Positions 2,743 to 28,030 of a DNA stretch of 64,000 nucleotides are shown piece by piece. The stretch lies in the NCBI GenBank assembly GCA_902624455.1, contig CACNXQ010000003.1:39029-103028 (forward strand), given 5' to 3'. A program made the translations under genes and the position numbers. This DNA comes from an uncultured Pelagibacteraceae bacterium. GTDB lineage: Bacteria; Pseudomonadota; Alphaproteobacteria; Pelagibacterales; AG-422-B15. The notes under the pieces are model-generated. The model made no database searches. It was not told the DNA's origin and saw only the letters and a list, made by a program, of their open reading frames with translations. How positions within the stretch are numbered: position 1 is the first letter of the stretch; each line of letters opens with the position of its first letter.

Positions 2743-3722
2743 TATGTGATGTATTTTTTATAAAAATTATACCAGTTGTTCCCAAGGATCCCATTTATTT
2801 CAGTCTCATTAAAACCAATCTTTTTAAGACCATTTTCAATATTACTAAAACCACGAGCATCCTCAAACCAGTCCGGTTGTTTAGGAAATGCAGCATTGTC
2901 TTTTGTTCCTTCCCCATAATCTTTGGATTTTGTCCAAGTTCCGTTTCTCATCCAATCAACAACACTATCTGGCTGACCTAAACACAAATCGGATCCTATC
3001 CCAATCTGATTAACATTTATCAGTTCAGCAGTCTGAGCAACCATTTTGCAAAAACTTTCAATAGTACAATTCGTTCCATCTTTTAAATGATGAGGATACA
3101 TTGACAGTCCAATCATTCCTCCTGAATTATTTAATGCTTTTAAAACTTGATCTGATTTGTTTCTTCTGGACTCATGCCATGAGAAGGGATTAGCATGTGT
3201 AATGGCTATTGGATATTCAGAAATATCTATAGCATCAAGAGTAGACTGCTCTGCAGAATGAGACATATCAACGACGATACCAACTCGATTCATTTCTTTT
3301 ATAACTTCCCTGCCCATTCGGGTAACACCGCTGTCAACATTTTCATAACATCCTGTTGCAAGTAACGATTGGTTATTATAGGTAAGCTGCATAAACACAG
3401 CACCTATATCTCTTACCGACTGAACTAAATGAATATCATCTTCAATAGGCGAGCAATTTTGAAATCCAAAAAATATAGCTGTTTTATTTTCTTTATGAGC
3501 CTTCTTTATGTCTTTGTAAGAGTTTCCATGACTAATTAAATTACTGAAGCTATTGAAATACTCTTTCCATGTCTCAACATTTTTTTGAACCTCATCATAA
3601 TCTTCGTGATAAGCAATAGTAACATGCACTGCATCTAACTTAGCTTCATTATTAATTTTAAATATCTCTTCATTCCAATTACAATATTGGAGGTTATCGA
3701 TTCTATAGTTTACTTCTTCCAT
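2742..3722 (-). CDS. Membrane (renal-type) dipeptidase, peptidase family M19
   Basis: 326 aa with M19-like segments HVTIAYHEDYD, VVDMSHSAEQSTLDAI, ITHANP, IGIGSDL. Confidence 0.85.
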   Translation of the reverse strand: MEEVNYRIDNLQYCNWNEEIFKINNEAKLDAVHVTIAYHEDYDEVQKNVETWKEYFNSFSNLISHGNSYKDIKKAHKENKTAIFFGFQNCSPIEDDIHLVQSVRDIGAVFMQLTYNNQSLLATGCYENVDSGVTRMGREVIKEMNRVGIVVDMSHSAEQSTLDAIDISEYPIAITHANPFSWHESRRNKSDQVLKALNNSGGMIGLSMYPHHLKDGTNCTIESFCKMVAQTAELINVNQIGIGSDLCLGQPDSVVDWMRNGTWTKSKDYGEGTKDNAAFPKQPDWFEDARGFSNIENGLKKIGFNETEINGILGNNWYNFYKKYIT

Positions 3723-3916
3723 TGTGGAAATTGTTTACCACGGTACCTCAAAATATTCTATGAGCTTGTAAAAGTTTTAAGTTCGGAAATAACTGAGATT
3801 AACCAACAAAAATTGAGGTCAGATGCGACAATTTAAACCCTTATGAGAGCTCTTAATTGCTTCATTATTACGAGAAATAATTGTATTTTGAGCACAGATA
3901 CTAACAGATTACATAA

Positions 3917-4516
3917 ATGTACACACCTATCAACCAATACATCGAAAGATTAGAAAATATTTCTTTTGATGTAACTGAACTTAACGAAGCGGTTAGCCGT
4001 CTAACTGAAATTAGACCATTTGAAGACGTAAGTCACAAGCCGGGTATGCTTAAATCAAACGCTATTTGTCTTAATTATGATGAAAAAGAACTTGATGAAT
4101 GGTTTGGAGGAAACGTAAGAGGTAAGTATTGGACTAAACCAGACTCCTCTTTTGAAGAAATGGAGAGAGAACCTTACATCGATGAAAGTCGATATACACT
4201 TTTTAACCCAAAATTAAACAACACATACTTTAAATATGTGTATGAAAAACTTAATGAATATTTTGATATCGGTAGATGCAGAGTTATCAAAATGCCACCA
4301 AGAACTACACTTAGCTGGCATCGTGATCCTGAGCGACGATTACACATAGCAATCAAAACAAATTTTGGCGCTAGAATGTTTATAGAACACACTGGTTATC
4401 ATATTCCTGCGGATGGAAATATCTACTTAACTGATAACACTAAGTATCATACAGCAATCAATGGTGGTGAAGAGGACCGCATTCATCTTGTTGCTACTGT
4501 TCTAAACACTAAATAG
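3917..4516 (+). CDS. Aspartyl/asparaginyl beta-hydroxylase-like (cupin / 2OG-Fe(II) oxygenase fold) protein
   Basis: 199 aa. IKMPPRTTLSWHRDPERRLHIAIKTN...YHTAINGGEEDRIHLV matches the HxD...H / R.HL pattern of the Asp/Asn beta-hydroxylase family. Confidence 0.55.
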   Translation: MYTPINQYIERLENISFDVTELNEAVSRLTEIRPFEDVSHKPGMLKSNAICLNYDEKELDEWFGGNVRGKYWTKPDSSFEEMEREPYIDESRYTLFNPKLNNTYFKYVYEKLNEYFDIGRCRVIKMPPRTTLSWHRDPERRLHIAIKTNFGARMFIEHTGYHIPADGNIYLTDNTKYHTAINGGEEDRIHLVATVLNTK

Positions 4517-4517
4517 T

Positions 4518-5837
4518 TTAACAATCAATCACATTCTGTCTTGCCCAGTCGGCTCTACTGGCATAGTTGGATTTTTGATATTCTGAAATCTCTCTCTTTT
4601 TAAGTTTCTCGTATGAGTTTATAATTTTCTCACCAAAAACTTTTTTTGGCAGCTTTCCATCTGTTAGCAATCGTAAAGAGGACTCAAGACTGTTTGGCAA
4701 TTTTTTAATATCCTCTAAATTTTTACCTTCAGTATACATGTTGACATCAATCCTTTTGCCAGGCCAAATATTTTTTTCCATACCATTAATTCCCATTGCC
4801 GCAAGAGAAGCCTGCAGAAGGTATGGATTTACAGCTCCATCTGCAACTCTAAATTCGAAACGTCCTTTATCAGGTATTCTAATCATGTGAGTTCTATTAT
4901 TACCTGAGTAGGTAATTGCTGTAGGAGAGTAGGTTGATCCTGAGTCAGTCATTCTGGCATTAAGTCTCTCAAAACTATTTACTGTTGGGGTAAGCCATGC
5001 TGAGAATTCATCAACTGACTTCATGATACCACCAATGAAGTTATAACCTTGACGTGAGAGTCCTAACTCATCTTTATGATTTAAAAATATATTTCTCTTC
5101 TTGTTTTTTGTCCAAACAGAGACATGTGCATGGCAGCCATTCCCTGTAAGGTTTTCAAAAGGTTTGGGCATAAATGTTGCTCTCAGACCATGATTTTCTG
5201 CAATGGATTTTACCATGAATTTAAAAAAAACATGCCGATCAGCTGTTGTTAAACAATCTGAATAATCCCAATTCATTTCGAACTGTCCATTTGCATCCTC
5301 ATGGTCACTTTGATAGGGAGCCCATCCGAGATGTATCATTGCTTCACTTATTTCTTTTAAAACATCGTAGCGTCTCATAAGAGCTGATACATCATAACAA
5401 GGTTTAGATGCTGTATCTCTTGAGTCATAGATCTCTTTTCCATCTTCAGTAATAAGAAAGAATTCACACTCAACACCTGTGTACATATAATAACCTGACT
5501 CTTTTAATTTACTGATTTGTTGCTTTAACATGACCCTTGGACATTGATCCATCGGTTTATCGTTAATCACAAGATCAGCTGCAAGCCATCCAACTTCTTG
5601 CTGCCAAGGTAATTGAGTCAAACTGTCTGGGTCAGGCACAGCAAACATATCAGGGGCGTCATAGTCAAGATCGAGATAGGTTGCAAAACCTCCAAAACCT
5701 GCTCCAGTTTTTTGCATTTCAGAAATTGCTCGCGCGGGAACTAATTTAGCTCTTTGAATACCAAATAAATCAACAAAACTGACCAAAAAGTATTTGATCT
5801 TTTTTTGACGTGCAATCTTTGAGAGGTCTTTTTTCAT
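4518..5837 (-). CDS. Glutamine synthetase family protein (GlnA/PuuA/GmaS-like gamma-glutamyl ligase)
   Basis: GS beta-grasp and catalytic segments (KYFLVSFVDLFGIQRAKLVP, GVECEFFL, HEDANGQFE, NGCHAHVS, NRTHMIRIP). I moved the start to the internal ATG at 5837 (MKKDLSKIARQKKIKYFLV); the 31 upstream codons of the track ORF look like hydrophobic read-through. Confidence 0.85.
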   Translation of the reverse strand: MKKDLSKIARQKKIKYFLVSFVDLFGIQRAKLVPARAISEMQKTGAGFGGFATYLDLDYDAPDMFAVPDPDSLTQLPWQQEVGWLAADLVINDKPMDQCPRVMLKQQISKLKESGYYMYTGVECEFFLITEDGKEIYDSRDTASKPCYDVSALMRRYDVLKEISEAMIHLGWAPYQSDHEDANGQFEMNWDYSDCLTTADRHVFFKFMVKSIAENHGLRATFMPKPFENLTGNGCHAHVSVWTKNKKRNIFLNHKDELGLSRQGYNFIGGIMKSVDEFSAWLTPTVNSFERLNARMTDSGSTYSPTAITYSGNNRTHMIRIPDKGRFEFRVADGAVNPYLLQASLAAMGINGMEKNIWPGKRIDVNMYTEGKNLEDIKKLPNSLESSLRLLTDGKLPKKVFGEKIINSYEKLKKREISEYQKSNYASRADWARQNVIDC

Positions 5838-5921
5838 ATAAATAATTATCAGAATTAAATATTGAATCAGACTCAAACTCAATAGTTTTGCAAAAAACCC
5901 ATTTTGGGTACATAATAAGTT

Positions 5922-6986
5922 ATGGATCAAGGGCTTTTAAAGACTAGAAATGTCTTCATCGATAAAATTTTAGAATTAGAGGACAGTTCAATTGCAATTT
6001 TGCTGTTAATACATTTTTCAAGACACCAAAATTTATTTCTACACAACCAAAAAGACTGGGAAGACAGTCCAACCGATTGGTTGACTGAAGATAAAAGAAT
6101 TCAAGATGAAATTATTGGCATACTCTCATTTGTGATTCTTTACTCTCTTACAAATGCTCATACAGATAATACAATATTTCCTGAGTCAAGAGATTTGATA
6201 GCTAGCATGGGATTAGAAGATTTTCTAAATCAAAAAGAATATTTTTCATCTTTTGATAGTTTTATAGGAAAAAAAATTTCTATAAAGTCCATCTCAGATT
6301 TTTTTAGCATACCAAAAGAAAATACTAGAAGGTATATGAAGCTTATTCTTGAAGCAGGCTTTATTAGTAAGGATAAAAAATATGGATATATGTTAAACAT
6401 TGAAGCCTATAAACAATATATATTCACGGACTCTTTGAATAATATCTGCAAATCACTAATGAGGACATTAGCCGATTTTATATCTAATATCGAAGATGAA
6501 TATCAAGTTGAGTTCAATATAAAACCACTCAAGAATTTTAATTTAAAAAAAGCAAATTTAAAAACATGGTGCCGTGTAAGATTACATTTATACCATTTCT
6601 GGGTTAGAGTTCTAACTCTCGAAGGCAATGATAAAAATTTGAGTCCTAATGATCGGGCGGTTTTATCAGCATCTGTATATTTTAAAAATAGACAAGGGAT
6701 ATTACAATTTAAAAATATTACTGAACTATATGAAAATAACTATTTGCTGCCCACTAATATTTCATCAATTTCAGAGGCTGCTCAAATGCCAAGAGAAACA
6801 GTTAGAAGATCAGTGATGAAACTTATTAAATTAGAACATCTTGAAAAAAAAGGGCGCGATATTTATCGATATAATTATCCAAAAAAAGATGGAGAAATAG
6901 ATAACTTTCTTAAAGTAAAGCAAATATCAGTAAGAGATATGATGAATTTTTATTTTAATATTTATAACGATCTATCAAAAATTTAA
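5922..6986 (+). CDS. Putative transcriptional regulator with two winged-helix HTH-like segments
   Basis: 354 aa. Two HTH-like stretches: ISDFFSIPKENTRRYMKLILEAGFISKDKKYGY and ISEAAQMPRETVRRSVMKLIKLEHLEKKGRDIY. 3' end overlaps the convergent OMF gene by 4 nt. Confidence 0.45.
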   Translation: MDQGLLKTRNVFIDKILELEDSSIAILLLIHFSRHQNLFLHNQKDWEDSPTDWLTEDKRIQDEIIGILSFVILYSLTNAHTDNTIFPESRDLIASMGLEDFLNQKEYFSSFDSFIGKKISIKSISDFFSIPKENTRRYMKLILEAGFISKDKKYGYMLNIEAYKQYIFTDSLNNICKSLMRTLADFISNIEDEYQVEFNIKPLKNFNLKKANLKTWCRVRLHLYHFWVRVLTLEGNDKNLSPNDRAVLSASVYFKNRQGILQFKNITELYENNYLLPTNISSISEAAQMPRETVRRSVMKLIKLEHLEKKGRDIYRYNYPKKDGEIDNFLKVKQISVRDMMNFYFNIYNDLSKI

Positions 6987-9808
6987 ATTGAGCACATCAT
7001 AATGACTTCTTCATTACAGATTAACTCAGCCTCAACAATTGAGGTATTATCGGAGCTCAATTGAGTATCTAATGACTCAAGCATAGACACGGCGTCATTT
7101 TTTGGAACTGGACCAACAATCACTGAGTAATCGTTCTTAGCGATTTGGTCTACGTTAATGTCATATTTAAGAAATCTGCTATCAAAACCCATGACGTCAT
7201 ATAAATAATTCATAAAACTGAAGGCAGAGTTACCTCTCTTATAGGAGCCAATTTTTATATAAACATGTTCGGCATCAGTGTTTTCAATTAGTTGTCCAGT
7301 ATTCGTTTTTGATTCACTTGCCTGTGCCGAATAGCTACTTGAGATTGAAACATCATTAGGATCGATAATCTCATTTAAATCTTCAATAGCATTATTAGCT
7401 TCTAATAATAATTCCTCTTCTTTTTTAGAGGCAATCATTTGATCTAATTCATTTTTTGCATCATGTGCCTCAGCAACAATCTTTTCTAGTTCCTTCTTTG
7501 CTTCATTTGCCTCGGCAACAAATTTACTTACTTCAACATTATCAGATGGCAATTTTTCTGGAAGAATATTTATTAATTCTTCATTTGTTACAGAGTTAGA
7601 TACTACTTCCTCTTCTATGCTGCTCACAACAGATTGTTCAACGACTTCTTCTTCAACTAATTCATTTGTGATTTCAGTTTCAGCATTATTATTAACAATG
7701 TCTGAACTATTTAAAATATTCTCAGCCTCATTCATTGTTTGTTCAACTGAGTCAAGTAAGTTGCTTAAAAGATCAGTTGAATTGATGGCAATATCACTTG
7801 TTAGTGGGGCTTGGCTTGATGGCGCTTCAGAAGTTTCTACAAGTTCTTGTGACTCGTTATTGCCATCTTCAATGACTGCAACTTCCTCCTCAGTTATATT
7901 AAATTCTTCTTCAATGGTTTCATCTATATTTTGGGCTTGTTGGTATAATTCAATAAGCTCTCTTCTTGCTTTCTCACTCTCATCTGCAAGAAATTTTTCT
8001 TCATCAACAAAATTGAGAGTAAAATCATCATTGGTAGAAACGAGGGCATTAGATACAGAAATATTTAGTTTAATACCAGTTACATCTTCAGGAGGATTAC
8101 CTACAATAGATAAATCTGATGTTAGGAATGCTAACCATCTTGGAAGTTCTGTTCCATCTTGTTGAGTAACTTCATATCTTAATTTGCCTGGGCCAGTGAT
8201 ATTAAACGTTTCTTCAGAAATTTTGAATTTATTACTAGTTTGTTGAGTATTGATAGGATCACTAATGATAAGCAGTTTTGGATCTTGTTGATCTAATGGC
8301 AAGTTCACAACAGCTTGATAGTTTTCTCCCCATTCCATCAAACTCATTTCAATATTTTTGCTCAGATCATCCACTGACAAGTTTTCATGATCTGGTGGAA
8401 GAATATCTTTACCTACAGATGCATATATTTGACCAATACTATGCTGCATGTCAGAGAAGGCCAGGTCACGTCTTAGCTCGGCGACTAACAAACTTGCTTC
8501 TTCCCTTATGACTTCTAATTCACCAAATCTTGAGACTTTTTGGGCATTTTGAACCTGTTTACTAATTCTCTGTGCTACATCGAGATATCTTTGGGCAGTA
8601 TCATATTCTTCTATTGCAAGATCATAATTCATATTGGAGAGATGAACTTGTGATAACACTGTCATAGCTATTGCAAGATGTCTCTCGGCAATCAACTCTT
8701 TACTAGCTTTTGAGGATTTAGATACAGCACCGATAGAAAAGATATCAAAAAGATTGCCACCTATTGATGCTCCATATTCTGTGGTATCTTGATTTAATAG
8801 TAAATGGTTATCGCTGTAACCATAAGTTGCATTAAACTTGATTCCTGGAATTAAACCAATAATTGCAGCTCTTGCATCCTTGCTTGTAATCCTCTTTTGG
8901 TACCTACTTTCCATTAATTCTGGTCTCGAAACTAGAGCAATGTTTTCCATAGACTCAATATCCATATCAATATTAGTCAGATAGCTATTTTGATCTGATA
9001 AAGTGAATTTTTGATTTGGCAATAATCCCATAAGCGTAGCTAGTTCATTCTTAGAATTGATTAGTGCTCTTTGCTGAGTTTGAAGCGTTCTTTGAACATC
9101 CAATAATTCTTTTTGATATAACAGGGAGTCCATTGGAGATGATAAAAGAAGTTCTTCAATATACTGAGAGTCGGCCAGAGCTGCATCAACTCTTTCAAGG
9201 AGTGGATTCAATTTATTTAGTAAATTTTCTGAAGCCTTGGCTTTCCAATAAGATCGAATAATATCACGGGTTATGTTTTGTATAGCCTTACGTTCCAACT
9301 CTTTTGCAATGAGAAATCGGTCTGCTTGTTGGCCAGCTCGGATGTAGGATAATCCGAAATCTAGAGCATTCCACGTAAATTCAATATTTCTAGTTTCCAA
9401 TCTTTTATCACGAGAAATTGTATAAGACTCGGTTCCATCAAGTCGTTCAGCATCACCCATATCGTTTTCAACACTCAAACTAGTAGAAGGTTGTAGCTCA
9501 GTAAATTCAGAGTAACCTGCATTTAATGCAATATCAGGCAACATATCAAACCGCTGAAGTTCGTTTTGACGTTGCGCCAAAGCTGACTCCATAACGCTGA
9601 TACGAAGGTCACGATTGTTTTTTATTGCGATAGCAATTGCAGTGTGTAAATTGATATTTTTTAGAGACTCGTTTACACTTAATGCTTCACGATCTGCCGC
9701 AATTGACGAATTGATTTCATCTACATCAAGCACGACTGGCGTTCTTGTACAACCCAACAAAATTAAAAATAGACAAAGAGAGAATATCTTTGTTACTTTA
9801 TCTAACAT
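6983..9808 (-). CDS. TolC-family outer-membrane factor lipoprotein with long C-terminal extension (cadherin-like module, acidic coiled-coil, SPOR-like domain)
   Basis: 941 aa. Lipobox LFLILLGC near the N-terminus. First ~480 aa have the two-repeat OEP/TolC heptad pattern (AIAIAIKNNRDLR..., ALVSRPELMESRYQ...). Then ELPRWLAFLTSDLSIVGNPPEDVTG, an E/D-rich low-complexity and coiled-coil stretch, and a terminal YIKIGSYKRGNSAFSFMNYL...YSVIVGPVPKNDAVSMLESL (SPOR-like). Confidence 0.8.
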   Translation of the reverse strand: MLDKVTKIFSLCLFLILLGCTRTPVVLDVDEINSSIAADREALSVNESLKNINLHTAIAIAIKNNRDLRISVMESALAQRQNELQRFDMLPDIALNAGYSEFTELQPSTSLSVENDMGDAERLDGTESYTISRDKRLETRNIEFTWNALDFGLSYIRAGQQADRFLIAKELERKAIQNITRDIIRSYWKAKASENLLNKLNPLLERVDAALADSQYIEELLLSSPMDSLLYQKELLDVQRTLQTQQRALINSKNELATLMGLLPNQKFTLSDQNSYLTNIDMDIESMENIALVSRPELMESRYQKRITSKDARAAIIGLIPGIKFNATYGYSDNHLLLNQDTTEYGASIGGNLFDIFSIGAVSKSSKASKELIAERHLAIAMTVLSQVHLSNMNYDLAIEEYDTAQRYLDVAQRISKQVQNAQKVSRFGELEVIREEASLLVAELRRDLAFSDMQHSIGQIYASVGKDILPPDHENLSVDDLSKNIEMSLMEWGENYQAVVNLPLDQQDPKLLIISDPINTQQTSNKFKISEETFNITGPGKLRYEVTQQDGTELPRWLAFLTSDLSIVGNPPEDVTGIKLNISVSNALVSTNDDFTLNFVDEEKFLADESEKARRELIELYQQAQNIDETIEEEFNITEEEVAVIEDGNNESQELVETSEAPSSQAPLTSDIAINSTDLLSNLLDSVEQTMNEAENILNSSDIVNNNAETEITNELVEEEVVEQSVVSSIEEEVVSNSVTNEELINILPEKLPSDNVEVSKFVAEANEAKKELEKIVAEAHDAKNELDQMIASKKEEELLLEANNAIEDLNEIIDPNDVSISSSYSAQASESKTNTGQLIENTDAEHVYIKIGSYKRGNSAFSFMNYLYDVMGFDSRFLKYDINVDQIAKNDYSVIVGPVPKNDAVSMLESLDTQLSSDNTSIVEAELICNEEVIMMCSI

Positions 9809-9993
9809 CTATAAGTCTTTTCAATTATTCACTTTTTTCGTTATTGTAATAGTACTAGTAAAATAAAAAACACATATAAAATATCCCCAAAATGGGTCAT
9901 TTTTGTGAATCTAAGTACACCTTAGAAAGTTTGTAGGATATAACTAAATCCATAAATATCAATGAATTAGGTATAGATTCTAATTAAATATAA

Positions 9994-12900
9994 ATGAGTA
10001 AAAAACTGATCCAAGCATTAGAACCACGAGTTATGCTCGATGGTGCCGCTGTAGCCACGGCATTGGATACAATCGATGAGCTCACTCAATCCAACAAAAT
10101 CGATGAGGGATCAGAAAATAAGAGTACTAAATTTAAAGCAGCTAGCGATACCAAACTTCCATTTGTGAATGGAATTGATGCAAGTCAAAATGCGAAGTCA
10201 CGACAAATTATTTTCATCGATAGTGCCGTTGAAGATATCGATACTCTTATAAACAGTTTTGATGCTCATGCAGAAGTTCATGTCATCCAAAGTGATCAAG
10301 ATGGATTTGTTGAAATTCAAAAAATTCTTTCAGATGAAACAAATGTAGATGCATTGCATATCATCGGTCACGGTAGTGTTGGACAAATCGCATTTGGAAC
10401 AGCTGTTTTAAATAGTGATACGTTAGATGCTTACGAAGATACACTCAAAACCATTGGTTTAAGTTTAAGCGAACAAGGGGACATTTTATTTTATGGTTGT
10501 AATGTTGCTGCCGATCAAAATGGTGAAATCTTAATTAATCAAATTGCGGATATTACGCAAGCAGATATTGCAGCATCAGATGATGTCACAGGTAAAGGTG
10601 GCGACTGGGATCTTGAAAAGCATACAGGTATTATTGAGGCCAATAATATTGATGTTGTAAATTATGAACACTCACTTGCAAATGGAGTAGCTTCAACTGA
10701 TTCATCAGTGGTTGAAATTCACGGTGCTACAAACTATGAGGCACGTTGGACTGACCCCACTAACCGTGACGGACAAATGGATCCAAGCTCCGATCGATTT
10801 ATTATTTCTCAAGAGAGAGCTGATGTAACAGGTGGAGCAGGGACTTTAAGTTTTGACGTTTCTGGTGCGAAAAGTTCGCATACACCAAGTACGAGTGAAC
10901 CAGTTCACGTGTATTTACTTTTCTCAAACGATAATACCGATAGCAACTCTCGTCGATCTGGCTCAAGAACAGGTGTCGTGACTTTTGAAAACGATATTTT
11001 GGGTGTCTTCACTAGCCCCTATAAAACCATTGCAATGACTGGGATTTCAAAACCAAACGCTTCATATCCAACGGCAACTTCGGATAAGATTGGAATGAGG
11101 GATTTAGAATATAAAAACGATAATGCTCCAGGACAGCAGGGGAATAAAGACTGGTTTAGAATTTACAATTCAAACAGGTCGATTGAAATTGGTACAAAAA
11201 ACGGACTTAAAGGTGACTTCATTCGTGTCATTACTAGAGCTCCGACTACAGTTGTGGTTGAAGGTAATAATGATGCGGGTTATATCAATGAAGACTCAGC
11301 ATTAAGTGTCACAAATGGTGCTAGTGCAAATGATAGCACGCCTGATACATCAGGAGAACATACAGGTGATGTATTGCTTAATGATACCGGGGGTAACGGA
11401 TCTGATTTATTTGTGAGTGCAATACAAGGAGGATCCGTTGGATCGCTAGTTGATGGTACGTATGGTCAACTAAGGCTCTTTTCGAATGGTTCATACACTT
11501 ACACGGCTAATAAAGATGCTGCTGACACACTTGATGACGGTGATACAGTAACTGACTCATTTACTTATACTGTTAGTGATGATGCAAATAATACCGATAC
11601 TGCAACCATTACAATTACTGTTAGAGGTATCAATGATCCGATTACCGCAGTTAATGACACAGATGCAGTATTTGAAGATCAAAGTATCAGCCGAGGGATT
11701 TCAAGTTCTAAGGAGTTAGATCATGACGATACCGATCCGGATGGTAGTGACTCATCTGGTAGTTTTACAATTACTGCAATCAGAACAGGAAGAGAGTCCT
11801 CAAGTAGCGGAAATGTAACTGGAACTGTTAACTCAGCTCTAAATGGTACTTATGGTGTTCTAACCGTAGGTTCAAACGGATCTTATTCTTATGCAGCCAA
11901 TAGAAGTGGAGCAGACGCGTTAGAAGCAGGTGCATCAGCTATTGATTACTTTACATATACCGTACAAGATCACAGCGGGGGTGACACGGATACAGCTGAG
12001 CTTGCAATTACTGTTACAGGTGTTGGACCAGGCGCTGTGAATGATACTGATACTGTTGCTGAAAATGGTTCCCTCAATCGTAATGCAGCCGCTGGAGTAT
12101 TGGACAATGATGATGATAGTGCTTCATTTGACCAAGAAAATTTAATTGTCACCAACATCACTTCAGATAGCACTGGTAATAGTGGGAATGCTACACAAGG
12201 TGTACTCGGAACCTACGGAACCTTAACAGTTGCAGAGGATGGTAGTTATACATATGTAGCAAATACTGCTGCTGCAGAAGCTTTAGCCGCTGGTGATAAC
12301 AGTCAAACCGATGTATTCACCTATACAGTAAAAGATGATAATGGCGTTAACGCAGATACTGCAACTCTAACCATTACGATACAAGGTCAAGACGATGATC
12401 CTGTCGCATCAGCAGACACAGGAACAGCTACTGAGGATGGTCCACAAGTTTCAGTGAGTGCTGCTAGCGGTGTTTTAGCCAATGATACTGATGTGGATGC
12501 TGGAGAAACGTTAGAGGTTTCAGCTGTTGGGGGTAATGGATCAGCCGTTGGCCAAAATGTTACAGGGTCTCTAGGAACTTTAAATTTAGATGCAGATGGA
12601 TCTTACACATATATTGCTGATCAAGCTGGTGCCGATGCAATTACCGCAGGACAAACTGCGACAGATACATTTAGTTACACCTTAACTGACGGTGAAGGGG
12701 AAACAAGCACGGTAAACCTAGTCATTACGGTTACAGGTAAAGGGCCAGAGGGTGTTGCGGACACAGCAACGGTAAATGAAAACTCAACAGTAGAGAAAAA
12801 CAACGCGGCTACTAATGGTGTATTAGCAAATGATGACGATAACGCATCATTTGATCAAGAAAGCCTTGCAGTAACTGCTATCACGGGAGCATCAGCCGGA

Positions 12901-15900
12901 ACAGTTGGTGGAACAACAGCTGGTACTCATGGTACTCTCACGATGAACCAAGATGGTACTTATTCTTATGCAGCAACTAACGATGCACTTGATGATGGAG
13001 AAACTGTTAATGATGTATTCACGTATACGGTTAAAGACGACGATGATAAAAACTCAAGCACCGCAACATTAACCATTGCAGTAACTGGAGTAAATGACCC
13101 AATTACCGCAGCTGACGATACAGATGGTGTTACGGCTGGGTCAACCATAACAAGAGATGAGGCATCAACCTTTGAGTTAGACCATGACGATACTGACCCT
13201 GATGGTGATGATGTGTCAGGTAACTTTACTATTACTGCTGTAACTCACGCTTCAGGAGATCTTACAGTTGGTCAACAATATACAACATCTAAAGGTAGAA
13301 TTACGATCAATTCAAACGGTTCATATACATATATAGCTGATCAAAGCGGTTCAACAGGCTTATCAAACGGTGCTCAAACAAATGACGTCTTTACATATAC
13401 AGTGAGAGATCACAGTGGAGGTGATACAGACACTGCAACACTTACAATTACAATTACAGGTTCAACTAATAATGCCCCTGTTGCTGATGACCCGGAAGTA
13501 GATGGCAATGCTGGAACGGGATACATCTTAGAAGATCAAACATTGACAGTTACGAATGGTTCTACTGGTGTAACTGGATCTGACAGCAATAATAATAACG
13601 AAACTGGAGACAATACAGGAGACGTTTTAAATAATGATACCGATGCAGATGGTGATCCACTTACTGTTTCTGCAATATCAGGTGGTTCTGTTGGTGCTGG
13701 AGGTGCCACAGGAACATATGGAACATTAACCATTCAAAGTGATGGTAGTTATACCTACAATGCAAATAATGCAAACTCGATAGCAAAAGATACTGAAGCA
13801 ACTGACGTTTTCACTTACACAGTCAGCGATGGCAATGGTGGTACAGATACTGCTACCATAACTATTACTATTTTAGGAGTAAATGATGCTCCAAGTGCAA
13901 GCAATGATACGAATGCTGTTGATGAAGATGCTACAGCATCCAAAAATGCCGGAGCGGGAGTACTGTCCAACGATAGTGATGCTGATACGGGTTCAAGTAT
14001 GACGGTGACTGCAATTACTGGAGTATCAGCGGGTTCGGTTAATGGAACAACAGATGGAACTTATGGTACTCTGACTCTTAATGATGACGGCAGTTATTCT
14101 TATACCGCCAATAAAGCTGCTGCAGACCAATTGGCACACAACGCTACGGCAAATGATGTCTTCACTTATACGGTCAAAGATAACGAGAACGCTACTGCTA
14201 CTGCAACTTTGACTATTGTGGTTACCGGTAAGGGACCTGTTGGTTCAGCTGACACTGCTTCAGTGAATGAAAATGTTTTACTTGAAAAGAATGAAGCAAG
14301 TGGTGTGCTAGCAAATGATAACGGTGGAGATACTGAGAATTTAATTGTTACTAACATTGAATCGAATGATACCAGTAATACCGGCACTGCAGGTCAAGGT
14401 GTTTTAGGAACCTATGGTACTCTCAATATTGCCTCTAATGGAAGCTATACGTATACACCAAATACGGCTGCTGCAGAAGCACTGGATCAAGGTGATGTCG
14501 TTTCAGAAGCCTTTACCTATACCGTAAAAGATGACAATGGTGTCAACTCAAGTACTGCTACCCTTACTATTACGGTAACCGGTGTGAACGATCCGATTGT
14601 AGCAGTTGACGATACCGACAGTGTTGATGAAGGTCAGAGAATAACAAGATTAATCAGTGATGATCAGGAACTTGATCACGATGACACGGATGTAGATACC
14701 GATGATGTGAGTGGAAGTCTTACGATTACAGATATCAGAACAGGTCCTAAGGATGGGACTGGCACCGATGGTTCTGTTAATGTGGCATTACAAGGTGAAT
14801 ATGGAACACTTACTGTACGCCCTAATGGGGGTTATACATACATTGCTGATCAAACAAAATCAGATGACTTGGTTACAGGTCAAACAGGAACAGATATATT
14901 CACTTACACAGTAAGTGACGGCACTGAAACATCGACAGCTCAACTTACTTTCACAGTAACTGGCGTCAACGATAATGACCCTGTTGCAGTGGATGATACA
15001 GATACGGTTAAACGTGATGCTTCAATAACTCGTGCTTCTGGATCTGCATTTGATATAGACTCAGATGATACAGATGCTGATGGAGAAACCCTAACCATCT
15101 CTGCAGTACGAACAGGTCAAGATGAAGGTGGAGGTAAAGGGGGCCCTGCTAGAGTTGGTAAAACACTTGTAGGCACATACGGTACTCTAACCTTGAATTC
15201 TGATGGTAGCTATACTTACGCAGCTGATCAGGATGCAGCGGATAGTCTGAAAAGGGGCGATAGTGCTATTGATTATTTCAACTATACAGTGACCGATGGA
15301 GAAAGAACAGACACAGGAGTAATTGCATTTACAGTTGAAGGTATCAGTGATCCACCTGAACCAGAAGATGATACCCTAGAGGTTGATGCAGGCGCAACGG
15401 CTACAAAGGATGCAACACAAGGCGTATTAAACAATGATAGTGACCCGGATGGAGATACCCTAATTGTTGATAGCATTAGAACGGGTCGAGAAAATAAAAC
15501 AGGTACATCTGGAACAGTTGGCACACCAGGAACAGATGGTACGCCTCTTACTGGCAGATATGGTGACTTAATAATGTATTCTGATGGTAGTTACGAATAC
15601 TCAGCAAATAATGCAAAATCATTAAATCCTGGTGAAACAGCAACAGAATATTTCACTTATACAGCATTTGACACTGATACTTCAGTTCCTGCCGAAATTG
15701 CAATTACGGTTACTGGTCAAAATGATCCACCTGAAGTCGTATTTCCTGTAAATGACCCGATAGTAGTAACAGGACAACAAATCAACATAAGACACAAACA
15801 AATTTTTGACGATCCTGACAGAGGCGCATTTGACATTACTGAATATAAAATTATCGATCCAGAAACAGAAGCAGAAACCAGTCTTCCAGAAGGACTTAGA

Positions 15901-17109
15901 TTAAAGCAAAATAAGTTACATGGAAGTATATCTACTCCTGGTATATATACGATTACTATAAGAGCAATTGATGGAGCTGGTTTATATGCTGATCATACCT
16001 TTACAATTACGGTTCGACCTGCGCCAGGTTTTTTCGCTGAAAATGAACCTATTTTTGAAGAATCATCAGTCAATATTGAACCATTGGTCATAAAGCCTAA
16101 GAAAGATTTCCTAGCAGCAGTCAAAGAGGCATTTAATGAAGGAACATCTAATATCTCTGATGATGGATTTAACTTGGATACCATTTCAATTGCTGACACT
16201 GCATCTCTATCTAAACCATTAAAATTTAATGGTGGCTTGAGATTGATGGACGCAGTCGCTAGTGATGTATCTGATATTGAAGGGGCAGACTTAAAAGTCG
16301 GTGTTAAATTAAATGATGACAACCAAAAAAATGTAGAGTCTTATTCAGGACAACTTTCTGATGGAAAAGCATTACCTGAGTGGATAAGTATCAATCCTGA
16401 AACAGGAGAGACAACTGCAGATATGCCAGATGGTGTTGACCAGGTAGAGGTTCAACTTGTCGCTCTAGATAAAGATGGAAATACAAGAGATATTAATATT
16501 GTTTTAGACAAAGCGAAAATTAAAAATGACCAAGACTTTACTCGAGGTACCGTTGGTCAAACACGAGTTGTTGTTGATAATGACTCTAATGTAAATCTTA
16601 TTCGAGAAAATAATGGTAACGTGAATAACACTGCTTCAAATAATTTGAATGCCGATGCAGACTTTGTTGGCAATATGAAATTAAGCTCACTTCAAATGGA
16701 CTCAGGTAAATTTACAATAGATATTATTGATGATAATCAGTCCAATGTGAAAGCTTATAAAGCTCAACTCAAAGATGGTAGCGCCTTACCTGATTGGGTT
16801 ACGATTGATCCTGAAACAGGAGCTATTTCTGCTGATCCATCTCTAAGTAAAACTGATGTTTCAGTACCTTCATTCATTGCAGATACTCCTACTATTCTAG
16901 AATTAAAGATAATAGCAGAAGATGAGGATGGAAATGAGAGAACAATTGAAGTTGAAATAAACCTTGATGAATTACCAGTTTCAGAAGATGATAGTGCTGA
17001 AAGCCCTGAAAATAATGAACTTTCTTTTATTCCATTAAACGAGCAATTGAAGAACCAAGCTCAACAATCAGATAGCTATGGCGAAAAAATTATGAGTCTT
17101 GTAAGCTAG
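9994..17109 (+). CDS. Giant repetitive surface/secreted adhesin-like protein (N-terminal DUF4347, 12 VCBS-type repeats, cadherin-like C-terminal modules)
   Basis: 2371 aa. N-terminus [14 protein letters not shown] followed by DUF4347-like [14 protein letters not shown]...[16 protein letters not shown]...[10 protein letters not shown]...GGDWDLE. 12 repeats of GTYGTLT..DGSYTY.AN..AADAL..G....DVFTYTV.D..G..[16 protein letters not shown]. C-terminal LPEG/LPEW/LPDW modules. Confidence 0.9.
11260..15735 (+). repeat. In-frame array of 12 diverged ~95-110-aa VCBS-type repeats inside the adhesin gene, with a higher-order pattern of alternating linker types
   Basis: I counted 12 FTYTV/FSYTL/FNYTV/FTYTA cores. 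Linker types recur: ELDHDDTD(P/V)D...FTIT (repeats 2, 6, 10), ANDDDxASFDQE(N/S)L.VT.IT (3, 5) and a related [17 protein letters not shown] linker (9). DNA copies are clearly diverged by eye, not recent duplicates. Confidence 0.85.
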
Positions 17110-17121
17110 TCTCATAAGGTC

Positions 17122-17844
17122 ATGAAAAAATTATATATTTTTTTGACAACGGTTTGTTGTTTTTTACTCATTTTTAAAAGTACTTTTGCCAATGAGTCCT
17201 CAACTCGTATTTTAGTTACGTCAACTGAAGAAGCAACTCTATCCAGCGAAATTGCAGCAAAAGTATTATCCATTCCGGTAAAGACGGGAAATTTATTCAA
17301 AGAGTCAGATCCACTGATTAAATTTGATTGTTCTTTTTTTGAAGCTCAAAAGGATGTGGTCGAGTCAGAATTAGAGAGTGCCAGGGTAACTCTTAAAAGC
17401 AATCAAGATCTTGTCTTGATGAGAGCAATTGGTGATTATGAAGTACAATTATCACAAATTGCAGTAGAGCAAGCTGAAGCTGAGTTAAAGATAGCTCAAC
17501 TTAATACAGATCGATGTATTATTCGAGCACCTTATGATGGTCGTATGTCTGATATCTTTGTGAATGAGTTTGAAAGCATTGAAAGACAACAGCCTCTCTT
17601 GAAAATCATTGGATCGGGTTCGCTAGAGGCTAAGTTAATGGTCTCGAGTAAATGGTTGTCATGGATAACCGTTGGGTATCCTATGCAAATTGTAATTGAT
17701 GAAAATGGTTTAATGTATCAAGCCAAAGTAAGTTCAATTGGTGCAAATATAGATCCAGTAAGCCAGACAATAGATATTACTGCAAAATTTGACGAAAATT
17801 ATGATACATTACTATCTGGAATGAGTGGGACGGCAACATTTTGA
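17122..17844 (+). CDS. Periplasmic adaptor (membrane fusion protein, HlyD/RND-adaptor-like), short form with signal peptide
   Basis: 240 aa. Signal-like MKKLYIFLTTVCCFLLIFKSTFA; lipoyl-like SSEIAAKVLSIPVKTGNLFKESDPLIKFD; coiled-coil; IIRAPYDGRMSDIFV hairpin-return motif. Starts 12 nt after the adhesin stop. Confidence 0.7.
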   Translation: MKKLYIFLTTVCCFLLIFKSTFANESSTRILVTSTEEATLSSEIAAKVLSIPVKTGNLFKESDPLIKFDCSFFEAQKDVVESELESARVTLKSNQDLVLMRAIGDYEVQLSQIAVEQAEAELKIAQLNTDRCIIRAPYDGRMSDIFVNEFESIERQQPLLKIIGSGSLEAKLMVSSKWLSWITVGYPMQIVIDENGLMYQAKVSSIGANIDPVSQTIDITAKFDENYDTLLSGMSGTATF

Positions 17845-19175
17845 GTGAAAACTCTTCTATAAAAATAGCAAGACTAATCACCCTTGAAAAAAAGTTCCGT
17901 ATGTCAGAGACTGAAACGGAGCTTGAATTTACATGTGTTAATGAATTACGAAGTATAATCGATTATAATTTTTTATTTCTTTTAACTAAATCAAATCTTA
18001 ACAAGTTAAAGGTCAAAGCTATCTCAGATATTTCTGTAGTAGATAGAACCGCTCCAGCAGTCACTTTTATCGAAACTCTAATAAAAAAAGACCTTATTCA
18101 AAGTGATGAAATATCAGAATTAAGTCTGAAAGATTTAGAGAATGAAACTGATATTGTATTACCAGAAAATTTTCCAAATGAATTTATCACCGTACCCCTG
18201 ACATCACCTACGAGGGGTAACATAGGTTATTGGGTTATGGTTCGATCTGAGCGTGCAACCAATACTGAACAAGAATTATTGTTACACATTTCAGAAACAT
18301 TTAGCCATGCACTAGGTTCGTTTACTTCAAAAAATTCAATAATGTCTTTCTTTCAAAAAGTATTTACTGGTTGGGTCAAATGGTTATTAATTACCGCTAT
18401 TGCTGCTGCAATGTTTATACCAATAAATATGTCTGCCTTAGCCCCTGTTGAAGTAATTGCAAAAGATCCATCGATCATTACATCCCCTGTTAACGGTGTT
18501 ATTGAAAAAGTATTAGTTAATACTAACGATCCAGTAAGTGTAGGAGATGATTTAGTTAAACTTGATGACTTAAATTTTAAAAACAATTATGAAATTTCTC
18601 TTCAAGAGCTTGAAGTCGCAGAAGCTGAATTGTTAAGAGTTAAGCAATCTTCTTTTACTAATCCTGACGATAAAGCTAAACTTGTGGAACTGTCAACTGA
18701 AGTAGGTTTGAAAAAGAAAGAAGCTGCGTATGCCAAAGAACAGTTAAATTATTCAGTCATTAGTGCTGAAACTAGAGGTGTTGCAGTAGTAGAAGACTCT
18801 ATCGATTGGCAGGGAAGGCCAGTCAGAATTGGTGAAAAGATTTTAACCATTGCTGATCCAACTCAAGTCGAGTTTCTGATTTTCTTACCGACTAAAGATT
18901 CTTTGTTAATTCAAGAGTCTGCAGAAGTTAAAGTATTCTTAGACAGTGATCCTCTTAATTCTTTAGATGCAGAAGTTATTAGAACTTCATACAAACCAGA
19001 ATTAACACCTGAAAATATTCTTGCTTACAGAATATATGCAAGTATTGAGGATGTGGCTCAAAATCCAAGAATAGGATTGAGAGGTACAGCCAAAATTTAT
19101 GGCGAAAAGACCAGTCTATTTTATTATCTTTTCAGGGTTCCTATCAATCTTACCCGACAATTTGTAGGTTTTTAA
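17841..19175 (+). CDS. HlyD-family membrane fusion protein with N-terminal cytoplasmic GAF-like domain
   Basis: 444 aa. TTG start overlaps the upstream stop (TTGA); alternative ATG at 17901. GAF-like ending ITVPLTSPTRGNIGYWVMVRSERATNTEQELLLHISETFSHAL; one TM (WVKWLLITAIAAAMFIPINM); then IITSPVNGVIEKVLVNTNDPVSVGDDLVKLDD plus a coiled-coil and beta-barrel region. Confidence 0.7.
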   Translation: MSENSSIKIARLITLEKKFRMSETETELEFTCVNELRSIIDYNFLFLLTKSNLNKLKVKAISDISVVDRTAPAVTFIETLIKKDLIQSDEISELSLKDLENETDIVLPENFPNEFITVPLTSPTRGNIGYWVMVRSERATNTEQELLLHISETFSHALGSFTSKNSIMSFFQKVFTGWVKWLLITAIAAAMFIPINMSALAPVEVIAKDPSIITSPVNGVIEKVLVNTNDPVSVGDDLVKLDDLNFKNNYEISLQELEVAEAELLRVKQSSFTNPDDKAKLVELSTEVGLKKKEAAYAKEQLNYSVISAETRGVAVVEDSIDWQGRPVRIGEKILTIADPTQVEFLIFLPTKDSLLIQESAEVKVFLDSDPLNSLDAEVIRTSYKPELTPENILAYRIYASIEDVAQNPRIGLRGTAKIYGEKTSLFYYLFRVPINLTRQFVGF

Positions 19176-21281
19176 ATGTTAACACCATTTATCAGACAAG
19201 ATCTTAAACTAAGCAAAGGACCAAAAAAAGAAGATGGTTCTTCAACATGGCTCCTCTACGATGCATTAAGAAACAAATATTTCTCCATCAATAAAAAGGC
19301 TTTTGATTTATTAAGCAACTGGACTGGTGGACAAAAGATGGATGAGTTTATTGTGAAGATGCAATCAATTAATGCATCAATACGTGACGATGAAATAAAA
19401 GACTTTGCTAACTTCTTAAATATTAATAATTTGACTACCAAGAAAACTCAAGACGAAGTCAAATCTCTAGTAGTACAAAAAAATAAATTAAATAAGCATT
19501 GGCTACTTAAACTTGTGCATAATTATCTTTTCTTCAAAATCCCTTTTTTTAGACCAGGCAGTTGGCTAGAAACAACCTTGCCGTATGTATCTGTATTAGG
19601 ATCCAGACTGGTTAGAAACATTATTTACATCTTAGGACTGATTGGTATTTATTTAACAATCTCAAATTATGAAACATTTTTAAATACGTTTTCATATTTC
19701 TTTAATTTAAATGGTTTAATATTTTATATTCTCACCATTATTGTGATTAAAGCATTGCATGAATTAGGGCATGCTTACGTAGCTACATACTATAAATGTA
19801 ACGTATCCTCCATCGGTCTTGCAATGCTGGTATTCTTTCCATTTTTATACACAGATACATCTGATGCTTGGAAACTAACAGATCACCGAAAACGATTACT
19901 GATTAATTTTGCAGGCATGCTGACAGAATTACACATCGCACTGATTGCAACGTTTGCTTGGGCCATCATACCAGAAGGTATTTTAAAAAGCGCAGCTTTC
20001 TTTATAGCAACTTCAAGTTGGATATCCTCTCTCCTTATAAACATAAGTCCGTTCATGAGATTTGATGGCTACTATGTATTATCTGATTATTTAAAAGCCG
20101 ATAACTTACAACCAAGATCCTTTGAATTAGGGCGATGGCAGTTAAGAGAATGGATTTTTGGTTTTAAATTTCAACCCCCTGAGCAGCTGATGAGCAATAG
20201 AAGATGGACGTTTATTATTTATGCATGGTCTACGTGGCTCTATCGGTTCTTTATCTTCATTGGTATTGCATTATTGGTCTATTACTTAACATTTAAAGTG
20301 CTAGGGATAATCTTATTCATTATTGAAATTGTTTGGTTCATCCTTCTTCCAATTTACAGGGAAGTGAAGCGGTGGTGGGGATTGCGTAAATCTATGACAG
20401 TCAATAGAACCTCAATGAGGTCTTTAAGTCTATTTTGTATTTTATTAGTGGCTCTCTTTATACCTTGGAGAACTTCTCTTAGTTTACCAGCAGTTATTGA
20501 GAAAGAAGCTGTGATTGATATTTTTCCACCTGAGGACTCGATGATTAAAAACATTTTTATTGATAATAATCAGATCGTAAAGAAAGGAGATTTATTAATT
20601 AGATTTACTAATCCTTACTTAGCAACTCAAGTTGAACAGGCAATTGATCGTGTAAAACTGATACAAAAGAAACTGGATCGAAGAATAGGATCTGAGTTGG
20701 ATATGAGTAATTTAATGGTTCTAGAAAACCAACTAAAAAAAGAACTGGAAGTACTCAATAATTTAAAAGAACAAAGTAAGGAATTAACAATTTATGCTAA
20801 CCAGGACTCAACTGTTGTAGATTTAAAATATCTTGAGAACAATCAATGGGTCAGTCAGAATGATAAGTTGTTCTCACTAATAGAATCTGGAAATTCTCAA
20901 GTTATTGCATATGTCAATGAGACAGACCTAAATAAAATTAAAAGTAAGAGCACAGGGGTCTTTTTTTCAAAAAATAATGAATATTCAAATATTGAAGTTC
21001 AATTAAGAGATCTTAATGAAACATCTACTGAAGAACTGCCTTACTTATCACTCACATCTTCTTATGGCGGTCCTATTGCAACAAGAGAAGTTGAAGGCAA
21101 AAAAACTTCGCAACGCCCTGAAAAAGCACTTTACCAAGTAAATTTTCAAACTCTCTCACAACACAGCGATCTTCAATGGGAAACGCCTGGAGTCGTTAAA
21201 TTAAAAAGTGAGAATTACAATGTATTTCAAAACCTCTTCAATTTAGTAACATCAACCCTAATTCAAGAAAGTGGTTTTTAA
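19176..21281 (+). CDS. Site-2 protease (peptidase M50) / membrane-fusion-protein chimera with PqqD-like N-terminal domain
   Basis: 701 aa. ATG directly abuts the upstream TAA. N-terminus WLLYDALRNKYFSINKKAFDLLSNWTGGQKMDEF (PqqD-like). HELGH at nt 19758-19772 and NISPFMRFDG at nt 20040-20069 lie within multi-TM segments. C-terminal MIKNIFIDNNQIVKKGDLLIRF plus long coiled-coil and TVVDL (HlyD-like). Confidence 0.8.
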   Translation: MLTPFIRQDLKLSKGPKKEDGSSTWLLYDALRNKYFSINKKAFDLLSNWTGGQKMDEFIVKMQSINASIRDDEIKDFANFLNINNLTTKKTQDEVKSLVVQKNKLNKHWLLKLVHNYLFFKIPFFRPGSWLETTLPYVSVLGSRLVRNIIYILGLIGIYLTISNYETFLNTFSYFFNLNGLIFYILTIIVIKALHELGHAYVATYYKCNVSSIGLAMLVFFPFLYTDTSDAWKLTDHRKRLLINFAGMLTELHIALIATFAWAIIPEGILKSAAFFIATSSWISSLLINISPFMRFDGYYVLSDYLKADNLQPRSFELGRWQLREWIFGFKFQPPEQLMSNRRWTFIIYAWSTWLYRFFIFIGIALLVYYLTFKVLGIILFIIEIVWFILLPIYREVKRWWGLRKSMTVNRTSMRSLSLFCILLVALFIPWRTSLSLPAVIEKEAVIDIFPPEDSMIKNIFIDNNQIVKKGDLLIRFTNPYLATQVEQAIDRVKLIQKKLDRRIGSELDMSNLMVLENQLKKELEVLNNLKEQSKELTIYANQDSTVVDLKYLENNQWVSQNDKLFSLIESGNSQVIAYVNETDLNKIKSKSTGVFFSKNNEYSNIEVQLRDLNETSTEELPYLSLTSSYGGPIATREVEGKKTSQRPEKALYQVNFQTLSQHSDLQWETPGVVKLKSENYNVFQNLFNLVTSTLIQESGF

Positions 21282-28024: not shown

Positions 28025-28030
28025 AAACTA

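Follow-up and report, generated by a model that had tools for sequence, protein, structure and literature searches.

Does a giant surface protein share a folded module with the channel through which it would be secreted, and could such a module tether the protein to its own pore? The question is raised by a locus (6983-21281) in a 64,000-nucleotide stretch of DNA from an uncultured Pelagibacteraceae bacterium (contig CACNXQ010000003.1, positions 39,029 to 103,028 of the forward strand; hereafter the window). The locus consists of a divergent gene pair, with an outer-membrane factor (OMF) encoded on the minus strand and a giant cadherin-like protein (the cargo) on the plus strand, followed by three further genes (Table 1). 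The window has a G+C content of about 33%, and the nearest relatives of the genes studied were found in Pelagibacteraceae single-cell genomes and metagenome-assembled genomes, which places it in the Pelagibacterales (SAR11). In an initial annotation it was proposed that one cadherin-like module occurs three times near the C-terminus of the cargo and once in the tail of the OMF, and that these modules could hold the adhesin on its pore by homophilic contact. The three cargo segments are called A1, A2 and A3 here, and the OMF segment is called O1. The sharing of a module was borne out, in a more specific form than had been claimed, and a tether of this kind at the cell surface was not.

The shared He_PIG module

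The quoted peptides were all present at essentially the positions given for them. Chance would give 0.07 copies of the motif LP[EDR][GW] in the cargo and 0.02 in the OMF; three and one were seen, respectively, and all three cargo copies lie within the last 410 residues. Whole-domain limits of the four segments were set from hidden Markov models (HMMs) and AlphaFold2 (AF2) models, and each segment was scanned singly against Pfam. He_PIG (PF05345) was the best match for all four, with A1 and O1 above and A2 and A3 below its gathering cut-off of 24 bits (scores in Table 1). AF2 predicted a beta-sandwich for O1 with a predicted local distance difference test score (pLDDT) of about 85, and for the cargo C-terminus it predicted sandwiches at A1, A2 and A3 with disordered linkers between them. 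By Foldseek, O1 was matched to Ig, cadherin and dystroglycan folds. The dystroglycan-type cadherin-like fold that had been suggested for the segments thus agrees with Pfam, with the predicted sandwiches and with Foldseek matches to cadherin, protocadherin and dystroglycan structures, of which the matches to dystroglycan chains 9c3c_A, 8yt8_A and 4wiq (E 3e-3 to 1e-2) are the sole CADG-specific evidence. The core motif D-G-x-x-L-P-x-W … G-x-P is also that of known He_PIG domains.

All four segments are genuine He_PIG domains with an Ig-like beta-sandwich, yet two kinds can be told apart among them. Pairwise alignment related A2 clearly to A3 (38% identity, Smith-Waterman z 20.7), whereas O1 was only marginally similar to A2 and A3 (20-23% identity, z 3-4, BLASTP and Smith-Waterman) and A1 was not significantly similar to the rest. 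Since the pairwise alignments were too weak beyond A2 and A3, profiles were compared instead. Aligned with hhalign, 27 non-redundant O1 sequences and 31 cargo modules matched over 49 core columns with 97.5% probability and an E-value of 4.9e-12, while a reversed-sequence control gave E 0.74. A1 matched the other two groups with E 0.008 and 0.49, and no link of the O1 subtype to A1 or to the VCBS repeats of the cargo was found. In a six-frame search of the window, the O1-family HMM cross-matched only A2 (2.3e-4) and A3 (7.9e-5), and the A2/A3 HMM cross-matched only O1, all with E-values from 8e-5 to 2e-4. Cross-matches were also found between loci. The window O1 matched the module at the position of A3 in three other loci (L068, L059 and L073), and the O1 HMM found cargo terminal modules in unrelated metagenome loci. 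These comparisons indicate that A2 and A3 arose by tandem duplication of a cargo-terminal module and that both form, together with O1, one He_PIG subtype distinct from known members of the family. The proposal of a single module in all four segments therefore holds for O1, A2 and A3 but not for A1, an ordinary He_PIG domain related to the others at the Pfam-family level only.

The channel tail and the cargo terminus

The OMF matched Pfam OEP in two stretches (E 1.6e-32) in addition to He_PIG, and thus has the two OEP repeats of a TolC-family channel core; the NodT and TolC subfamily models of NCBIfam matched it below their cut-offs only. Its lipobox LLGC (residues 17-20, within LILLGC at 15-20), the Cys of which is nearly invariant in the clade, marks it as a NodT/OprM-type lipoprotein. 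The OMF tail contains the module, as had been proposed, but the tail is more than this module: it is an extension of 440 residues made up of the He_PIG domain, an acidic linker and a SPOR-like domain, in this order. More than 100 homologues with 59-91% identity share this architecture, and He_PIG was matched in 32 of 32 aligned tails (that of the window and 31 homologues). An assembly or fusion artefact was considered for the tail and rejected, since the fused open reading frame (ORF) is kept in those more than 100 homologues.

Compared with the orthologue in another SAR11 genome (L002), identity was 0.88 in the channel core, 0.77 in O1, 0.2-0.38 in the linker and 0.82 in the SPOR-like domain. 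The linker consists of Asp and Glu to 26%, has a net charge of -49 and was modelled by AF2 as long helices and disorder. Between SAR11 genomes it is only 20-38% identical, with the flanking domains conserved, and its length seems to be retained while its sequence is free. The last domain is called SPOR-like only, because its direct assignment to Pfam SPOR failed. It aligned position for position with the Pfam SPOR domain of a homologue (P0120, E 4e-6), and hhalign matched it to SPOR tails with 64% probability and E 6.5e-5. The last 90 or so residues of the OMF have a pattern like that of the SPOR tethers FtsN, DamX and RlpA, whose topology the low-confidence prediction would match, and homologous OMF tails carry bona fide Pfam SPOR domains. 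Unlike in those tethers, the domain is divergent and is fused to a secretion channel and not to a division protein or a lipoprotein.

The clade to which this OMF belongs is broad, and its tails vary. Of 142 representatives, 42 are tail-less, and in the 100 tailed ones we found He_PIG (15), SH3_3 (13), SPOR (12), Cadherin_4 (8), OmpA (1) and LysM (1), so that wall-binding domains of the SPOR, SH3b, LysM or OmpA types recur in related tails. It has been reported that the C-terminal tail of TolC-family proteins is part of the periplasmic equatorial domain, that a share in adaptor contacts has been ascribed to it, and that the tails of OprM and AatA, for example, influence adaptor pairing (PMC8277102). 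The OMF of the window is like these proteins in being a lipoprotein with two OEP repeats and in having its C-terminal end at the periplasmic equatorial belt (PMC8277102). It differs in its tail, which is about 20-40 residues long in the known cases, whereas here it spans 440 residues and contains a folded He_PIG and a folded SPOR-like domain. Because the C-terminus of an OMF lies in the periplasmic equatorial domain and related tails carry wall-binding modules, O1 is by analogy almost certainly periplasmic, between the channel and the peptidoglycan, and not on the cell surface. A handshake of cargo and duct at the surface is topologically implausible for this reason.

The cargo belongs to a family of giants in which an N-terminal LEPR-XLL motif is followed by a DUF4347 domain. 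Pfam found in it DUF4347, 12 Cadherin_4/Big_9 repeats (of the VCBS/Cadherin_4/Big_9 type) and He_PIG, and NCBIfam found LEPR-XLL, VCBS and 'BapA/Bap/LapF family large adhesin'. The motif ALEPRxxxDGAA recurs in gammaproteobacterial and metagenome cargos. Neither a hydrophobic segment nor a Sec signal was found in the cargo, and HemolysinCabind (RTX) had no match in it at E-values up to 0.1. Its C-terminus is organized as a cassette of an A1-like He_PIG domain, a linker, one or two modules of the A2/A3 type and a tail of about 40 residues. The cassette was present in all loci of Pelagibacterales and of other marine Alphaproteobacteria in which the end of the cargo was in reach, and in most loci of the metagenome scan the terminal module, where present, lies 32-82 residues before the stop of the cargo. 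The tail is conserved across alpha- and gammaproteobacterial cargos with the pattern S-F-x-P-L-x-x-Q-L … Y-G-x-x-I, and a related tail S/G-F-x-x-Q-L ends all LEPR cargos inspected, with or without a He_PIG module (L158, L140, L134 and L156 are among these cargo C-termini). Judged from this conservation, the tail is a candidate for the secretion signal of the family.

The distribution of the two modules was counted in 57 loci with a visible ORF upstream of the OMF or adaptor gene. Where the OMF bears O1, the module is found in the cargo at every locus (8 of 8); where it does not, the module is present in 27 and absent in 22 of 49 loci (Fisher p 0.018, uncorrected for phylogeny). Of the 22 upstream ORFs that lack the module, several are not cargo genes, but at least three encode LEPR cargos. 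O1 was found on the OMF in all SAR11 genomes sampled. The OMFs of Halopseudomonas salegens (525 residues) and Marinobacterium maritimum (524 residues) are tail-less, and the cargos of both end in an A1-like He_PIG domain, one A2/A3-like module and the tail. In at least 27 operons, those of these two species among them, a tail-less OMF goes with a cargo that retains its terminal module, and the cargo module is therefore independent of O1. In a mirror-tree comparison of 45 loci, which proved uninformative, raw correlations were all about 0.95, reflecting phylogeny; after its removal O1 and the last cargo module had a partial correlation of 0.34, which is not above the control pairs (0.28 and 0.31). 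The proposed tether, in which homophilic contact would hold the adhesin on its pore at the surface, is thus not supported, on three grounds: O1 would lie in the periplasm, the cargo module is kept where O1 is absent, and no excess of co-evolution between the two was seen.

Two side observations concern the cargo. The linker between A2 and A3 (16537-16659) is the best conserved stretch of the protein (96% identity to L002) and is largely disordered in the AF2 model; it may be a linear binding motif. The LEPR-XLL motif contains a conserved di-alanine (10042-10053, residues 17-20, G-A-A-V within LDGAAVA). It resembles the LapG cleavage site in LapA, (T/A/P)-A-A-(G/V), and may be a lead on processing or release, with an M50 protease in the operon here instead.

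Roles considered for the channel-borne module

From the observed domain identities, the subtype link, the conservation and the presence or absence of the modules, we infer a periplasmic location, wall binding and a strut or adaptor-docking role for the OMF tail. The LEPR-XLL/DUF4347 giants would be exported by a conserved, ATPase-less operon resembling a type I secretion system (T1SS), with a lipoprotein OMF, two HlyD-family proteins and an M50::HlyD fusion. The cargo-terminal module is probably ancestral and widespread, lying 30-80 residues before the C-terminus of many of these giants and followed by a short conserved tail predicted to be helical. O1 would be a derived copy of this subtype, arising most likely by domain shuffling within the operon and grafted in some lineages onto the periplasmic C-terminus of the OMF, where it may open a tail that varies between lineages. 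The SAR11 tail would continue with the acidic linker of about 245 residues and a putative wall-binding domain of SPOR-like type. The most likely job of such a tail is that of a strut which anchors the channel to peptidoglycan, and contacts with the periplasmic adaptors around the equatorial belt may also involve O1. The modules of the cargo probably belong to its own C-terminal cassette for export and for the distal end of the fibre, and would work without a He_PIG domain on the OMF in most relatives. Taken as a whole, the reading that the module was copied onto the periplasmic end of the OMF, as the base of a wall-anchoring tail, is favoured with somewhat better than even confidence.

Several points weigh against it. 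The location and the partners of O1 are inferred. O1 is specifically of the cargo-module subtype, and a pure spacer role leaves unexplained why it is fairly well conserved (77%) beside a variable linker. The presence of the cargo module in every counted locus with O1 is also what a functional link between O1 and the cargo would predict. As to the wall anchor, Pfam SPOR (PF05036) had no direct match in the last 119 residues of the window OMF even at E 10, and the AF2 topology of this domain (beta-alpha-beta-beta-alpha-beta) was predicted with low pLDDT.

Another role would give O1 a partner among the adaptors. O1 would bind the periplasmic HlyD-family proteins at the surface which the cargo module uses, as a mimic of the cargo, and would stabilize or pre-assemble the complex of duct and adaptors in a system without an ATPase. 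The effect of the OprM and AatA tails on adaptor pairing (PMC8277102) agrees with this, as do the three HlyD-type proteins of the operon, one of them soluble with a signal peptide, and the fact that O1 and the cargo module are of one subtype, which fits a common ligand. However, O1 is dispensable in many relatives, its partial correlation with the first HlyD protein is not elevated (0.28), and a cargo without a Sec signal should not bring its module to periplasmic adaptor surfaces outside a sealed channel. We consider such docking on the adaptors rather unlikely.

A handshake of cargo and duct could also take place inside the periplasm, which would require that the C-terminus of the cargo be kept there, that is, that export proceed with the N-terminus first. 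The folded A2 and A3 would then act as a retention plug of reverse polarity on the three O1 domains of the OMF trimer. The common subtype of O1 and A2/A3 fits this arrangement, and so does the restriction of O1 to operons whose cargo bears the module (8 of 8). The strongly conserved LEPR-XLL motif could be an N-terminal signal, and the conserved folded module near the C-terminus is plug-like, in the manner of LapA of Pseudomonas fluorescens, which is retained inside its TolC-like pore LapE (bioRxiv 10.1101/198937). On the other side, retention cannot generally depend on O1, with at least 27 operons keeping the cargo module beside a tail-less OMF. The tail motif is kept where the module is absent, which suggests that the signal lies in the C-terminal tail. 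No excess of co-evolution was found, and Ig-like domains are not homophilic by default. The layout of the cargo also mirrors that of RTX adhesins. Those adhesins exit C-terminus first and are retained by an N-terminal module, and they are built of a folded alpha/beta N-domain, extender repeats, special domains and a short conserved C-terminal tail. Retention by a reverse-polarity plug is accordingly judged unlikely, and the fuller version, in which A2 and A3 stay in the periplasm after N-terminus-first export by the M50::HlyD protein and dock on O1 of a wall-anchored OMF trimer, is slightly more doubtful still; as a tether mechanism it is speculative. If it were true, the most abundant marine bacterium would hold a surface fibre of 2371 residues by an Ig-Ig handshake between cargo and duct.

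Coincidence, in which He_PIG is simply common in bacterial surface proteins and LPxW is a family signature without any specific relation, would suit the weak pairwise similarity of O1 to A2/A3, its lack of a significant match to A1 and the scores of A2 and A3 under the Pfam cut-off, but it is largely refuted and very improbable, because the profile-profile match far exceeds that of either family to A1 or the VCBS repeats, the reciprocal HMM matches of O1 and A2/A3 are the only ones in the whole window, and the O1 HMM recovers terminal modules of cargos in unrelated metagenome loci.

Comparison with the Lap system shows both likeness and difference. In each, a giant repeat adhesin is encoded beside its own TolC-like OMF and HlyD-type adaptors, a protease takes part (LapG there, an M50 domain here), and the idea of a folded terminal module that holds the fibre on the cell is common to the two. 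LapA, however, has a C-terminal RTX/T1SS signal, an ABC (ATP-binding cassette) exporter, an N-terminal retention module and control by LapG and LapD, whereas RTX repeats, an ABC exporter, LapG and LapD were not found here, nor was an N-terminal retention module with a LapG site found at the locus. LapE is also without an Ig-like or SPOR tail, and retention in the Lap system needs no cargo-like domain on the pore (10.1101/198937).

TolC-family channels are usually described as bare ducts with short tails, whereas this OMF clade, which was universal in the SAR11 genomes sampled, bears folded tails, putatively periplasmic (He_PIG, SPOR, SH3b, LysM), one domain of which copies the terminal module of its own cargo. 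No paper was found on OMFs with He_PIG or SPOR tails, and the joining of a He_PIG domain to a TolC-family channel was in none of the papers found. The He_PIG/SPOR-tailed OMF is a real and apparently undescribed variant of the TolC-family channel. It offers a handle on the positioning of secretion ducts with respect to the cell wall.

The operon and its neighbourhood

The three genes downstream of the cargo encode two HlyD-family adaptors and an M50::HlyD fusion (Table 1), the latter with NCBIfam similarity to intramembrane metalloproteases. The five-gene set recurs in the Pelagibacterales, gammaproteobacterial and metagenome loci examined. In the metagenome scan the usual order was cargo, OMF, HlyD1, HlyD2 and M50::HlyD, and the M50::HlyD gene was the final gene of the operon in every related locus examined.

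Table 1 Features of the secretion locus, with positions counted from the first letter of the window
Feature	Positions	Strand	Remarks
OMF gene	6983..9808	-	941 aa; lipoprotein TolC/NodT-like outer-membrane factor with 440-aa C-terminal extension
OMF channel core	8324..9748	-	aa 21-495; two OEP repeats; ~88% identical to L002 orthologue
O1, He_PIG Ig-like domain	8009..8296	-	aa 505-600; Pfam He_PIG 31.8 bits scanned alone
Quoted OMF peptide	8048-8170	-	aa 547-587
Acidic linker	7274..8008	-	aa 601-845, ~245 residues; hypervariable, partly helical
SPOR-like C-terminal domain	6986..7273	-	aa 846-941; probable peptidoglycan binder
Cargo gene	9994..17109	+	2371 aa; LEPR-XLL/DUF4347 giant cadherin-like protein
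N-terminal LEPR-XLL motif	10009..10068	+	NF012209, 17.0 bits at a cut-off of 17
DUF4347 domain	10207..10644	+	Pfam E 7.8e-48
A1, canonical He_PIG	15709..16029	+	aa 1906-2012; Pfam 31.0 bits; AF2 pLDDT ~86; outside the O1/A2/A3 subtype
Quoted cargo peptide 1	15874-15981	+	aa 1961-1996
A2, cargo-terminal-type He_PIG-like module	16264..16536	+	aa 2091-2181; Pfam top match 18.0 bits; AF2 beta-sandwich, pLDDT ~72
Quoted cargo peptide 2	16345-16509	+	aa 2118-2172
A3, cargo-terminal-type He_PIG-like module	16660..16989	+	aa 2223-2332; Pfam top match 21.3 bits; AF2 pLDDT ~70
Quoted cargo peptide 3	16759-16968	+	aa 2256-2283 plus 2302-2325
Conserved C-terminal tail (SFIPLNEQL)	16990..17106	+	candidate secretion signal; two short helices in AF2
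HlyD-family adaptor 1	17122..17844	+	240 aa; Pfam HlyD_3; signal peptide, hydrophobic segment aa 4-22
HlyD-family adaptor 2	17841..19175	+	444 aa; Pfam HlyD_3; cytoplasmic N-domain of ~170 aa; single transmembrane segment aa 174-192
M50 (site-2-type) metalloprotease::HlyD fusion	19176..21281	+	701 aa; Pfam Peptidase_M50 and HlyD_3; ~6 transmembrane segments

Genes of the membrane fusion protein (MFP) type and an OMF gene are present, but neither this operon nor the related operons examined contain an ABC exporter, and no ABC exporter or other ATPase was found in any locus seen (including L085, L087, L089, L091, L093, L100, L127 and L131). Classical type I secretion is thus not what the locus encodes, as the cargo also lacks RTX (GGxGxD) repeats. 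The window does have an ABC-2 pair, the closest ABC genes to the operon, but it lies 5 kb away past three unrelated genes. The pair (26331-28024) was considered as the missing exporter and rejected, since unrelated genes intervene and it is absent from related operons.

Compared with T1SS adhesins of the RTX/BapA-LapF type, the cargo has the same folded N-domain, array of cadherin/VCBS extenders, special domains near the C-terminus and short tail. It differs in having no RTX nonapeptide repeats, in its LEPR-XLL and DUF4347 N-terminus, and in a system that has an M50 protease::HlyD fusion as the inner-membrane component and no ABC transporter. Literature searches on DUF4347, LEPR-XLL, a Pelagibacter giant protein or TolC, a site-2 protease with HlyD and TolC with SPOR returned incidental mentions only, and no paper on the export operon of LEPR-XLL/DUF4347 proteins was found. 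The operon appears to be an undescribed system of T1SS-like type, and its conservation extends from SAR11 to Gammaproteobacteria and to diverse metagenome contigs. This surrounding system, which is conserved in SAR11, has an M50::HlyD fusion and lacks an ATPase, is more remarkable than the shared module. It gives a handle on the export, and possibly the retention, of giant surface proteins by an uncharacterised system that apparently has no ATPase. SAR11 cells are extremely streamlined, and the keeping of a locus of about 14 kb implies ecological importance, for example in attachment, in interactions with phages or grazers, or in cell-surface properties.

As for the neighbourhood, the genes next to the operon are glutamine-synthetase-like, helix-turn-helix (HTH)-like, prolyl oligopeptidase and others, and no LapG- or LapD-type domains were seen. 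An ORF of 354 residues (5922-6986, plus strand) runs towards the OMF gene, with an overlap of 4 nt at the OMF stop. Its synteny is kept in other SAR11 genomes (L002, 12733-13800). The ORF has only faint winged-helix/HTH similarity and matches no Pfam family, and it may regulate the locus. The ABC-2 type exporter pair of permease and ATPase (26331-28630, minus strand) adjoins a DMSP-lyase-like cupin gene and is apparently unrelated to the secretion locus. In two Nanopore-derived complete SAR11 assemblies (L001 and L003), frameshifts break the giant gene and the OMF gene into many short ORFs, and gene calls for the locus in such assemblies are unreliable. A further long-read contig, L004, the context of the distant match P0141, has 2x coverage and is ridden with frameshifts, and it served only for one observation: at 1672-12481 a C-terminal cassette of a cargo stands directly before the DUF4347 start of a second giant gene, which suggests that some genomes carry tandem cargo genes.

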